Below, in pieces: positions 1 to 21,292 of a stretch of DNA of 21,292 bases; position 1 is the first letter of the stretch, and every line of letters starts with the position of its first letter. The position numbers were made by a program, and so were the translations under genes. This DNA is from a virus: UHGV virus genome UHGV-0273766, one strand, 5' to 3'. The notes under the pieces are model-generated. The model searched no databases, was not told where the DNA came from, and worked only from the letters and a program-made list of their open reading frames with translations.

Positions 1-2793
1 TAAACTATTCCATGTTCCAAGATTGTCACCCGAGGCGGTCAACATGAAGTATGTGCTTGAACCATCGTTTCGGATAAAGAATCCATAGTTGCCATAGGCA
101 ATGCGCAGACCATTCGCCGATTTGGAAATAATCTCGCCAGCAGCAGTTAATCCGCCAGTTAACGCTCCTCCAGATAGTGGTAAAGCTCCGACATCAGCCG
201 CAGTAGGTTTGTTTTTAGTGTTATACGCTCTGCGCCATCCTGGTGAATAACTTGTGCCATTAGACACATAGATAAATTCAGCATTAGTGAGTGCGCCAGA
301 TACACTTGTCGTCGTTGCCGTTGTTATACGAATGGTAAAATAACTCGTGCTACTGCTATTATTAAATACCTCTATAACTGCGCCAGCCAGCGGAATAATG
401 CCGCATCCTGTTTCGCTGTCTGGTATGGATGCACTATTTGCATACGCCCAGGCACAACGCGCTATCCATACCTTTGCATTAAAAGCACCATTATCTCGTA
501 GCAGAGTCACTAATTGCTCTGTTGTTATTGATGCTCCATTATCACCTGTTTCAAGCCAACCAGTAGGAGATGCCGGGCAACCAATATTTGCCGGTGACAG
601 AGAAATATTAGCCGTTCCGTCAAATGAAACCCCATTAATGGTGCGTGCTGTTTGCAGTTTTGTGGCTGTAGCTGCATTGCCGGTAGTGCTCTGATTGCCT
701 GTTTTATTCACGCCCGGCAGGTCGATGTTTGCGGTGCCATTAAATGAAACACCACCAATAGTTCTTGCCGTTTGTAATTTCGTTGCAGACGCCGCGTTTC
801 CGGTTGTGTTCTGGTTGCCCGTGGTATTTACACCAGGGATGGAATCCTTCGATGTGTAGACCTGCGCCCACTCTGACCAACTGGCTGTATCAGTATCTCG
901 TCGCGAACGTACATGTACAGGTGCATGAGCGCCACTTGTACCGCTCCAACCTATGAACAACTCACCTTCACCAACTGCCGTTGCGCCCTTAAGATGAAGC
1001 ACATTCCCGTAAGCAGAAGGATAGCCGTTGTTGTACGCCTCATACATTTGCAATCCAGTAGCAGCACCTTGTGTTGTACCGGTGAGCGCAGTAACACGCC
1101 CTCTGGACGTAATTGTTGGTATCGAAATGTCCACAGAACCATCAAATTTAACACCGTTGATGTTTCTTGCCGTCGCAAGTTTCGTCGCGGTAGCAGCATT
1201 CCCCGTGGTGTTCTGGTTACCTGTTGTATTTACACCTGGAAGATTGATATTGGCCGAGCCATCAAATGCCACACCGCCAATCGAGCGTGCTGTTTTCAAT
1301 TTCGTCGCGGTGTCGGCATTCCCTGCCAGCGCCCCGGTGATCCCGCCGTTGAAAGTCTGGCGTGAACTCCATGTGTTAGCCGTGCTCAACAGGGGGATCT
1401 TTTCACCGCTGGTACCGAGTTCTCTTAAACCAAGGTATTGGATAACAGCAAGAACGCTTGTTTTGGCCAGAATATCGCGACCGACTGACGTTAAGTCAGT
1501 CTGAGAAACAGTGTCTGTACCGGTAAAGTACGGCAATTTATTTGCGCCTGTCGCAAGACCAGCAAGCGCGGTTAAAGTTGCATCAAGTGGCTGTTTCCCT
1601 GCCAGCGCATTTGTCATTGTTGTCGCAAAGTTCGGGTCATTGCCCAGTGCTGCTGCAAGCTCATTCAGGGTATCAAGAGCTTCAGGTGATGATCCGACCA
1701 ATGCAGAGATAGCAGCCCGTACGTAAGCAGTCGTAGCGATCTGCGTATTGTTTGTGCCCTGTGCAGCCGTAGGCGCAGTAGGGACACCCGTTAATGCAGG
1801 GCTTGCCAAAGGCGCTTTGAGAGCCAAGGCATTGTTGATAGTTGTGCTGTAATTCGGGTCGTTATTGATCGCAGCCGCTATTTCTTTCAGCGTATCCAGT
1901 GTGCCAGGCGCACCGTTGATAAGTGCAGTTATAGCTGCCTTAACAAAGGCTGTATTTGCGATCTGCGTGCTGTTTGTACCTTGCGCTGCCGTCGGCGCGG
2001 TTGGCGTTCCTGTCAGACTCGGGCTTTCTATTGGCGCTTTGGTATCAGCCAGATCTTTTATAGACTTAACGGCTTTAGGGGTAGCCGCCATTGTTTCGCT
2101 GTCGCTGTTAGTTGCGCTACTGAGCTGAACTAATCCCTTTTGCGTTGTGCTTGCATCCTGCGCCGTATACTTGCTTTTCGCCAGATCGTAGGCTTTTTTA
2201 ACTGCCAGCGAACTTGCAGCAACATCACTTCTGCTACTGGTTACAGAGTCTGAAATATCAATGCCGATCGTGCGGTTAATACGCTCGGATGTATCAATCA
2301 TCTCCTGGGTAATGGCTGATACGCCAGCAGGGATATTCACCGTACAAACAAGCAGCTCCCCATCTCCTAACTGATATGAATCGGTATAGGTTCGGGCAAC
2401 AAATTCAGCCGCATGAATATGTGACGCGGTATTAACCTGATAGGTATCCTCTCCAAGGAGGTATCTTCCCTTCAGCACAATTGCATATTTCTTGCCTGCA
2501 CTAAGTGCAAGAGAAATATCCTTACGGTGCTGAATAGTTACCTGGTAGAATTCACCAATATCCACCGACGCCGCGCCTGCGGTTTTATCACCATCCACTG
2601 AGGTGATTAACAGGTTCATCCCACCGCCAGGCTTAGGTAAGAAACCGGCATAAAATCCCGGGTCAACAATCCCCCTGAATTTTCGGTTTAGCGCGGCTGA
2701 CAGATATGGTTCGTGGTATTGCACATCAGCCACCAGAGCCAACGACTCGGGTGATGGGTAAGTAACTGATGTAACAACTGTAACGTCATTCAT
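1..2793 (-). CDS. Phage tail fibre protein, 5' partial in window (N-terminal ~931 aa present; C-terminus lies beyond position 1)
   Basis: ATG at 2791-2793 with AAGGA about 9 nt upstream; open frame to window edge. N-terminus carries the conserved tail-fibre motif KGLVQLSSATNSDSETMAATPKAVK (as in P2 H / Mu S / P1 S-type fibres). Several internal ~40 aa repeats of the form GVNTTGNQNTTGNAATATKL.TAR.INGV.FDG. Not in the ORF track because it is truncated by the window edge. Confidence 0.85.
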   Translation of the reverse strand, partial: MNDVTVVTSVTYPSPESLALVADVQYHEPYLSAALNRKFRGIVDPGFYAGFLPKPGGGMNLLITSVDGDKTAGAASVDIGEFYQVTIQHRKDISLALSAGKKYAIVLKGRYLLGEDTYQVNTASHIHAAEFVARTYTDSYQLGDGELLVCTVNIPAGVSAITQEMIDTSERINRTIGIDISDSVTSSRSDVAASSLAVKKAYDLAKSKYTAQDASTTQKGLVQLSSATNSDSETMAATPKAVKSIKDLADTKAPIESPSLTGTPTAPTAAQGTNSTQIANTAFVKAAITALINGAPGTLDTLKEIAAAINNDPNYSTTINNALALKAPLASPALTGVPTAPTAAQGTNNTQIATTAYVRAAISALVGSSPEALDTLNELAAALGNDPNFATTMTNALAGKQPLDATLTALAGLATGANKLPYFTGTDTVSQTDLTSVGRDILAKTSVLAVIQYLGLRELGTSGEKIPLLSTANTWSSRQTFNGGITGALAGNADTATKLKTARSIGGVAFDGSANINLPGVNTTGNQNTTGNAATATKLATARNINGVKFDGSVDISIPTITSRGRVTALTGTTQGAATGLQMYEAYNNGYPSAYGNVLHLKGATAVGEGELFIGWSGTSGAHAPVHVRSRRDTDTASWSEWAQVYTSKDSIPGVNTTGNQNTTGNAASATKLQTARTIGGVSFNGTANIDLPGVNKTGNQSTTGNAATATKLQTARTINGVSFDGTANISLSPANIGCPASPTGWLETGDNGASITTEQLVTLLRDNGAFNAKVWIARCAWAYANSASIPDSETGCGIIPLAGAVIEVFNNSSSTSYFTIRITTATTTSVSGALTNAEFIYVSNGTSYSPGWRRAYNTKNKPTAADVGALPLSGGALTGGLTAAGEIISKSANGLRIAYGNYGFFIRNDGSSTYFMLTASGDNLGTWNSL
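605..850 (-). repeat. Two tandem copies of the tail-fibre ~40 aa repeat (coding repeat inside the fibre gene); coordinates approximate
   Basis: Near-identical DNA/protein segments encoding PGVN(K/T)TGNQ(S/N)TTGNAA(T/S)ATKLQTARTINGVSF(D/N)GTANI. Confidence 0.7.
1130..1340 (-). repeat. Further copies (one full, one partial) of the same tail-fibre repeat; coordinates approximate
   Basis: Encodes PGVNTTGNQNTTGNAATATKLATARNINGVKFDGSVDI, followed by a shorter degenerate copy (ATKLKTARSIGGVAFDGSANI). Confidence 0.65.
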
Positions 2794-2804
2794 CAAGCAT
2801 ATCC

Positions 2805-3239
2805 TTATGCTGTTGTCGTGTTTATGGCCATAACTGCGGTATATGTTTTGCCCACATACAGCGAGTCTTCCTGGACACAAATAATGGCGATTGGCTTGTT
2901 CTCGTTATCCAGAACAACCAGAGTGTTGAATGGGTAGTTTTTCCCTTCCTGCAACTGGCTTTGATCAAGGTCCATTCGGACAGTAATTATCCCGCCTGAG
3001 TAGGTTGGGACGAGGTTGATGGTGCAAAATTGACTGGTCAGTTCTGCCAGATCGAAAACCTTTGGCAGTTCTCCAATCTCATAAGTGCCATCTCCTTTCT
3101 TAGTAACCAGTGAACTGGTACCGAAAACGGCCTTGCTGATTAAAAATCGAGAGCCTTTGTTAATGGACGATTCAGCGCGCCGCTGATAGTAATAGTCCAA
3201 CAACTGACTCTTATAGAGGTTTGTTGAGACGTCAGACAT
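2805..3239 (-). CDS. Hypothetical tail/baseplate-associated protein (144 aa), immediately upstream of the fibre gene
   Basis: Complete ORF in the same operon, 11 nt from the fibre start; position matches small fibre-proximal tail proteins (P1 R-like by position only). Confidence 0.55.
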   Translation of the reverse strand: MSDVSTNLYKSQLLDYYYQRRAESSINKGSRFLISKAVFGTSSLVTKKGDGTYEIGELPKVFDLAELTSQFCTINLVPTYSGGIITVRMDLDQSQLQEGKNYPFNTLVVLDNENKPIAIICVQEDSLYVGKTYTAVMAINTTTA

Positions 3240-3317
3240 GATTTTCCCTAATCAATGTTGTGAAGCCTCATTGTAAGAGAAGTAACTTGTCACCCCGCCC
3301 TGCGGACGGGGTGATTG

Positions 3318-21144: not shown

Positions 21145-21193
21145 AACGGATGAGATTGCAGAATTAATTACGCACCATTATTATTCTGCTCCC

Positions 21194-21269
21194 GGCCCTT
21201 TAGCTCAGTGGTGAGAGCGAGCGACTCATAATCGCCAGGTCGCTGGTTCAAATCCAGCAAGGGCCACCA
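21194..21269 (+). tRNA. tRNA with anticodon CAT, tRNA-Ile2-like (lysidine type) or tRNA-Met; CCA encoded
   Basis: 7-bp acceptor stem GGCCCTT/AAGGGCC, D-arm AGCTCAGTGG, anticodon loop CTCATAA, T-arm GGTTCAAATCC, discriminator A plus CCA. Closely resembles E. coli ileX/ileY-type tRNA from memory. Confidence 0.85.
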
Positions 21270-21292
21270 TCACATACCGCCATTAGCTCATC

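Follow-up and report, generated by a model that had tools for sequence, protein, structure and literature searches.

We read the window, the whole 21,292-nt stretch of the virus genome UHGV-0273766, as a recombination joint between two well-known elements, a P1-like phage-plasmid and the nin/Q region of a lambdoid prophage, formed by one crossover in their common hok/sok toxin-antitoxin cassette, and we give an even chance that the resulting cointegrate is a real molecule. All components of the window come from well-known families (P1-like phage-plasmid, lambdoid nin/Q region and hok/sok), and the join alone is unrecorded. Only one junction lies in the window, so that a single-crossover cointegrate and an assembly chimera fit equally well, and sequence alone does not tell the two apart.

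In a megablast search of phages and complete E. coli genomes, the window fell into two homology blocks, P1-like at 1–16956 and lambdoid at 16559–21292, and no single record in these collections covered 80% or more of it. The best match to the left side in one piece was the plasmid p2022H047-2 (NZ_AP029607.1), with 97.8% identity. By origin, 1–16674 is P1-like phage-plasmid DNA and 16632–21292 is a lambdoid nin/Q region. The first-pass annotation of this DNA had noted such a juxtaposition and suggested a hybrid element, or a phage-plasmid carrying lambdoid cargo. The juxtaposition was borne out, as the two homologies meet at 16559–16956 and no database record covers both. The hybrid thus stands as a fact of sequence, but nothing shows a new functional element. 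A BLASTN synteny comparison with P1-like and lambdoid genomes, which the same annotation had proposed, gave two known parents and an arrangement found in no reference genome.

Two parental sequences meeting in the hok/sok cassette

The cassette of about 400 bp, which most P1-like plasmids and most lambdoid prophages possess, comprises a Hok/Gef toxin open reading frame (ORF), an overlapping antisense sok and a folded leader. Its P1-type and lambdoid-type versions are approximately 85% identical, and the longest perfectly identical run between them is the 43-bp interval 16632–16674. Compared with the closest P1-like relative (the draft contig L034, which encodes the identical Sit protein), the window exhibited 4 mismatches over 1398–16674 (99.97% identity), followed by 40 in 16675–16956. 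Compared with the lambdoid locus L023, a defective prophage on the chromosome of an enterotoxigenic E. coli (ETEC), it exhibited 13 mismatches in 16559–16631 and then 0 over 16632–17841 (1,210 bp). This pattern indicates that the switch from P1-type to lambdoid-type sequence occurs within the 43 bp. The interval is located in the non-coding hok leader, and hence no gene is broken by the crossover. The promoter-like site, the hok ORF, the sok match, the pairing 5′ tac and 3′ fbi elements and the terminator are all intact in the hybrid cassette, and from these features the hybrid hok/sok locus should still be functional.

The first-pass annotation had counted hok among the lambdoid hallmarks, which did not hold, because the 81-aa gene and hok are usual after repL in P1-like plasmids (65 of the 80 P1-like loci of IMG/VR, with the rlfA of P1 instead in 14). 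The hok gene is native to both parents; it is the site of the join and not lambdoid cargo. In canonical P1-like plasmids hok is followed by bplB, pmgG, 21, 22 (sheath) and 23 (capsid), and then by parBA-repA. The window does not continue past hok into bplB-pmgG-21-22-23; its P1-like homology ends at 16956, and lambdoid genes follow.

On the right side, the Q-like gene, DUF968, hok and tRNA named by the first-pass annotation were all recovered (PF06530 for Q, PF01848 for hok, and a tRNA with anticodon CAT). Their order, hok-92aa-DUF968-Q-methylase-tRNA, is usual in E. coli lambdoid prophages and in phages carrying Shiga toxin 2 (Stx2), with Q placed in a nin-type region and followed by a late-region tRNA. 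The right arm is itself mosaic, as lambdoids normally are. Its identity is 100% to the ETEC prophage over 16632–17841, 98–99% to an S88-type prophage over 18071–19779, and 98% to a common methylase-tRNA block over 19603–21292. The DUF968 gene is of the L023 type (100%) for its first 500 bp, up to 17841, and becomes a divergent allele from 17842. The best match of this 3′ half among complete E. coli genomes was 95.8%, and the exact DUF968 protein was absent from a collection of 15 billion proteins. A second chimeric switch within DUF968 at 17842 was considered and rejected, as a 3′ half at most 95.8% identical to complete E. coli genomes indicates a natural divergent allele. Because this half is genuinely divergent, the right arm looks like one natural phage rather than a walk through several common repeats.

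The simplest origin of such a joint would be a single homologous crossover, within the 43 bp of hok/sok, between a circular P1-like plasmid and a lambdoid prophage, whether resident or excised. RecA could act in this exchange, assisted by P1 Ref or a Red/RecET-type recombinase of the lambdoid, for which tens of base pairs would be enough. P1 Ref and the lambdoid Red/RecET-type functions favor recombination at short homologies. A cointegrate would result, with the remaining P1 genes (bplB, pmgG, 21, sheath 22, capsid 23, par and repA) located across the P1 genome, beside the reciprocal joint. A real joint would offer a base-pair view of a phage-plasmid fusing with an integrative prophage, where the homology used is an accessory toxin-antitoxin cassette and not a core gene or an insertion sequence. 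It would then bear on how phage-plasmids become integrated prophages and on gene flow between P1-like and Stx-type phages, and lambdoid late genes might be co-amplified from the P1 lytic origin.

A real joint or an assembly chimera

An assembly chimera is a serious alternative, whose probability we place somewhat below one half. It supposes that the source contained a normal P1-like plasmid and a separate lambdoid prophage, that the assembler crossed between them at the hok repeat, and that no joint molecule existed. The longest shared k-mer run is precisely where the switch occurs; a clean switch at such a place is expected for homology-dependent recombination and for a wrong de Bruijn path alike. 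The P1 part shares 99.97% identity with plasmids whose arrangement in other strains is canonical, and the junction is unique among thousands of finished genomes.

Several further observations weigh against a real joint. Neither the 5,426 complete E. coli genomes nor the 72,556 plasmids contained a record covering 16100–17900, the join was absent from 50,697 phage records, and no P1-like phage record carried the right arm. About 700 complete P1-like plasmids and long contigs with the 81-aa gene were all canonical at hok. Exact-protein look-ups with DUF968, RepL, the methylase, the 214-aa protein, Sit and the 81-aa protein did not lead to the source contig, and each contig with the P1 proteins had the canonical arrangement at hok. 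Short diagnostic anchor patterns for hybrid hok leaders, validated on fetched loci and recovering the contig L052 (IMGVR_UViG_3300018478_000166) as a positive control, detected no joint of the window type in IMG/VR or in the GTDB representative genomes and no reciprocal joint in IMG/VR. A wide-anchor junction pattern likewise gave no match in viral, JGI metagenome and GTDB collections. The sole other example is L052 itself, which comes from a metagenome assembly and is, like the window, a putative joint. The hok cassette is also a known branch point of assembly graphs: at least 8 P1-like contigs of IMG/VR end inside hok, and the Logan contigs L036 and L037, built at k = 31 and encoding an identical Sit protein, stop at 16661, exactly 30 nt beyond the last P1-specific base (16631), as expected for a graph branch. 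Finally, the window ends in repeats on both sides, in the Sv/Sv′ block on the left and 23 bp past the tRNA on the right, which suggests a complete short-read contig, in which the assembler could have taken a wrong path. An exact 110-nt junction pattern gave no match either, but neither did its P1-type control, so that this pattern was too strict.

The chimera is opposed by the shortness of the shared run. Identity between the closest parental types extends over 43 bp only, with dense mismatches on either side, and assemblers finishing at k of at least 55 see no ambiguity there. Most current short-read assemblers finish at a k larger than this run, which should therefore not confuse them. The cix inverted repeat, at which conservative assemblies end, is also read through correctly in the window, and the right arm carries the divergent DUF968 allele instead of a patchwork of common ones. 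If the join is an artifact, the hok cassette is a place where assemblies of E. coli with both a P1-like plasmid and lambdoid prophages recurrently break or mis-join, and false "hybrid phages" can enter viral catalogues by this route.

A stable P1-like phage-plasmid that acquired DUF968-Q-methylase-tRNA as cargo by two crossovers, with P1 sequence resuming rightward, plasmid replication and perhaps function as a hybrid phage, is very improbable: a variable cargo spot is known after repL in P1-like elements (rlfAB, 81aa + hok, lom, or a 198-aa cassette) and the homology of the P1 S/U tail-fiber genes with lambdoid stf/tfa offers a possible second crossover site, but this explanation requires two events instead of one, no return junction to P1 is found in 4.3 kb, DUF968, Q or this methylase is on no P1-like plasmid or phage record, and viability would demand that bplB-22-23 be kept elsewhere.

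Returning to recombination in the cassette as the origin of the join, L052 represents an independent P1-like/Qin join with its switch in the same 43 bp. This raises the idea, tentative and in our judgment rather unlikely, that hok/sok serves as a portable homology patch, through which P1-like elements repeatedly recombine with resident Qin- or Stx-type prophages, the crossover being preferred in the conserved 43 bp. P1-like elements integrated in the chromosome beside prophage genes have been documented in a study that gave no cause for the integration (Pfeifer and Rocha 2024, PMC10879196). Like the element found in a lambdoid tail region of E. coli ST2747, although its joints are others, they speak for a real joint in the window. 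If the portable-patch idea is true, it would supply a concrete mechanism for this unexplained integration of P1-like phage-plasmids next to prophages, and it would place the P1 lytic origin (repL/oriL) directly upstream of the lambdoid Q/late region. No literature on hok-mediated recombination between P1 and lambdoids was found.

Gene content of the two arms

The features of the window are collected in Table 1. The minus-strand block 1–11498 is 97–98% identical to, and fully syntenic with, P1 and P1-like plasmids. Its order S-R-16-bplA-pmgA-sit-pmgB-tub-pmgC matches the annotated P1 genome, and the gene assignments agree across Pfam, PHROGs and PDB matches. The P1 sites cixR, the Lpa-type late promoters LPs and LPsit, Op51 and Op53 and the c4 and kilA promoters are present with 0–1 mismatch. 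The exact Sit protein was found on 7 public contigs, all P1-like. PmgA is an orthologue of T4 gp25, and BplA is a gp6/J-like wedge protein (PMC9024508; bioRxiv 2025.07.21.665459). A cryo-electron microscopy preprint describes Tub as a ring under the tube and BplB as the major tube protein (bioRxiv 2025.07.21.665459).

The first-pass annotation had described this block as a minus-strand operon with Sit-like, gp25-like, J-like and fiber genes, diverging from plus-strand regulatory genes. Both descriptions agree with the comparison with P1, as ImmI and kilA-repL are on the opposite strand. It had also described the operon as "headless", without capsid, sheath or tube genes. No capsid or sheath gene was found within the window, and bplB, whose product is the neighbor of BplA in canonical elements, is missing, but the tube-fold gene tub is present, and its T4 gp19-like product is part of solved P1 structures. 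The genes for plasmid maintenance (repA and parAB), the c1 repressor, cre/lox, pac and the head genes lie outside the window. The order from S to pmgC is identical to that of P1, in which such genes are normally scattered, so that the left three quarters of the window form no unusual "headless" module.

Given the position of cixR, bases 1–1432 fall inside the Cin-invertible C segment. The left end of the window lies inside a 252-bp homologous block that recurs in inverted orientation between Sv and Sv′. The cixR site is surrounded by an inverted repeat of 155–197 bp (these repeats concern window 1–186 and 1247–1443), and draft contigs of close relatives stop at 1398–1438.

To the right of the operon, membership of the P1-like group is further indicated by ImmI (c4 RNA, icd and ant1/2) and the C1-controlled kilA-repL, which were assigned by Rfam, operators, Pfam and synteny. 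P1-like plasmids commonly have, in the place of simABC, this pair of accessory genes encoding a YfjT-family and a 224-aa protein, and 12,609 blocks of a public collection contain the 81-aa protein. In the lambdoid arm, the 214-aa gene that separates Q from the methylase is an uncommon one, with 119 blocks that are for the most part tiny contigs; an E. coli S88 prophage has it too. Of further lambdoid functions, no cI/cro immunity, O/P-type replication, integrase or lysis genes and no lambda-like head or tail genes are present in the window.

Table 1. Features of the window, with positions in nucleotides from its first letter
Feature	Position	Strand	Basis or remark
S, P1 tail-fiber gene	1–2793	−	931 codons open; C-terminus past the window start (3′-truncated)
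cixR	1423–1442		Match to annotated P1 site
R, P1 baseplate/tail-fiber attachment	2805–3239	−	Comparison with P1
Late promoter LPs	3270–3288		Match to P1 site
Gene 16, baseplate wedge partner of BplA	3318–4157	−	Comparison with P1; bioRxiv 2025.07.21.665459
bplA, baseplate wedge, J/gp6-like (Baseplate_J)	4154–5587	−	Pfam PF04865 and PF21379
pmgA, T4 gp25 orthologue	5584–5943	−	PDB 9ay5_M, E = 1.8e-76; PMC9024508
sit, tape measure with SLT transglycosylase domain	5940–9332	−	PF01464
pmgB, essential tail morphogenesis gene	9414–10295	−	Comparison with P1; PMC9024508
tub, T4 gp19-like tube-fold protein, hexameric ring below the BplB tube	10310–10921	−	PDB 9ay5_A, E = 5e-131
pmgC, tail adaptor	10932–11498	−	Comparison with P1; PMC9024508
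Late promoter LPsit	11530–11548		Match to P1 site
Two accessory genes in place of P1 simABC	11557–12769	−	158-aa YfjT-family protein; 224-aa protein (weak PTP-like-phytase match)
ImmI control region	12839–13122	+	
C1 operator Op51	12839–12855		In ImmI; exact match to annotated P1 site
c4 promoters	Within 12839–13122	+	In ImmI; matches to annotated P1 sites
a1/b1 targets of C4	12916–12968	+	Rfam (RF03163/RF01695 matches)
C4 antisense RNA	13037–13122	+	Rfam (RF03163/RF01695 matches)
icd and ant1/ant2 (antirepressor)	13170–14422	+	Pfam and P1 synteny
PkilA with C1 operator Op53 (14501–14517), kilA, repL with lytic origin oriL	14483–16262	+	
81-aa gene typical of P1-like plasmids	16313–16558	+	Final P1-specific sequence
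Promoter-like site of hok/sok	16537–16564		
hok/sok type I toxin-antitoxin cassette	16559–16956	+	Common to P1-like plasmids and lambdoid prophages
sok	16571–16744		Rfam RF01794, 117 bits (gathering score 59)
Crossover interval	16632–16674		43 bp, identical in both parental types; P1-type to the left, lambdoid-type to the right
hok ORF	16739–16894	+	PF01848, E = 1.2e-21
Terminator after hok	16963–16980		
92-aa lambdoid nin-region gene	17062–17340	+	
DUF968/HNH (ydfU-like) gene	17342–18388	+	
Antiterminator Q	18391–18777	+	PF06530, E = 1.5e-47
214-aa protein	18826–19470	+	Weak WYL match
73-aa small protein	19723–19944	+	Weak TrmB-like HTH match
N6/N4 DNA methyltransferase	20095–21144	+	Common in Stx-type lambdoid phages
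tRNA, anticodon CAT	21194–21269	+	Annotated as Met or ileZ in Stx phages

Comparison with known systems

P1 (NC_005856) and P1-like plasmids such as NZ_AP029607.1 and DADKOH010000023.1 (GCA_017149295.1) share the gene order and control sites of the left arm with 97–99.97% identity. Relative to P1 itself, the window carries the YfjT-family and 224-aa genes for simABC and the 81-aa gene and hok for rlfAB, like most P1-like plasmids. It differs from all P1-like elements in that hok is followed by lambdoid DNA instead of bplB-pmgG-21-22-23. The right arm has the same order as the lambdoid nin/Q region represented by hokD-rem-ydfU-ydfT of Qin in E. coli K-12 and by ydfU-Q-methylase-tRNA of Stx2 phages, and beyond the segment matching the ETEC prophage it is 92–99% identical to S88-type and Stx2-type phages. 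It differs from lambdoids in having P1 repL and the 81-aa gene upstream of hok where these carry their usual replication/nin genes, in its DUF968 allele not found in the protein collection, and in lacking RusA between DUF968 and Q.

Some database matches that resembled precedents were rejected. The chromosome NZ_CM169485.1 carries a P1-like element, but this is canonical at hok. Among the "plasmid" matches with hok-DUF968, NZ_CP082081.1, for example, is a mislabeled chromosomal prophage region and not a P1-like element. This last record (PLSDB pMS20655A, L032) is a 150-kb "plasmid" with ompW, an integrase and a full lambdoid prophage, and it looks like a chromosomal fragment.

In E. coli ST2747 (NZ_CP007392), as in the window, a P1-like element directly adjoins lambdoid prophage genes, being embedded in a lambdoid tail region. 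The joints differ (J-lom′|P1 and sit′|L-K-I-J, with duplicated segments), and hok is not involved. ST2747 was accordingly rejected as a hok-mediated precedent, since its element was integrated among lambdoid genes through other joints. The duplicated segments at this structurally complex locus (L118/L119, NZ_CP007392.1, 2.13–2.25 Mb) are J-lom (824 bp, 100%) and pmgC-to-sit (5 kb, 99.4%), and an Ail/Lom gene is present beside repL in addition. In L118 (NZ_CP007392.1, 24400–26400) and in L040, L046 and L116, the hok leader is kept up to about window position 16666 and is followed by a 198-aa gene on the other strand. These cassettes show further module exchange at or near the same hok-leader point.

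L052 is the closest counterpart of the join, as kilA-repL-81aa is joined in it to a lambdoid hok leader in the same 43 bp. It differs from the window in its P1-like lineage and in its partner, which is Qin with a hok leader interrupted by ISEsa1-flxA-ydfV-relBE. In this 8.4-kb contig the Qin part has 99.4% identity to hundreds of E. coli chromosomes. The contig segment 4896–5077 corresponds to window 16559–16741, and it ends just short of the hokD ORF, where the interrupted cassette resumes. A Qin-type hok leader split from hokD by an ISEsa1 remnant, ydfW, flxA, ydfV, relB and relE is seen at 3001–6653 of L120 (NZ_CP092252.1). This insertion between the leader and the hokD ORF explains why hokD (relF) sits behind relBE in Qin-type prophages. 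The leader remnant of Qin retains homology to the hok leader found in P1-like plasmids.

The cassette itself resembles hok/sok of plasmid R1, which likewise has a Hok-family ORF, a full-length Rfam sok match, a 5′ end pairing with a 3′ fbi-like element and an intrinsic terminator. Compared with the R1 system, the cassette of the window, whose killing and antisense control are predicted, is of interest as a homology common to two mobile elements.

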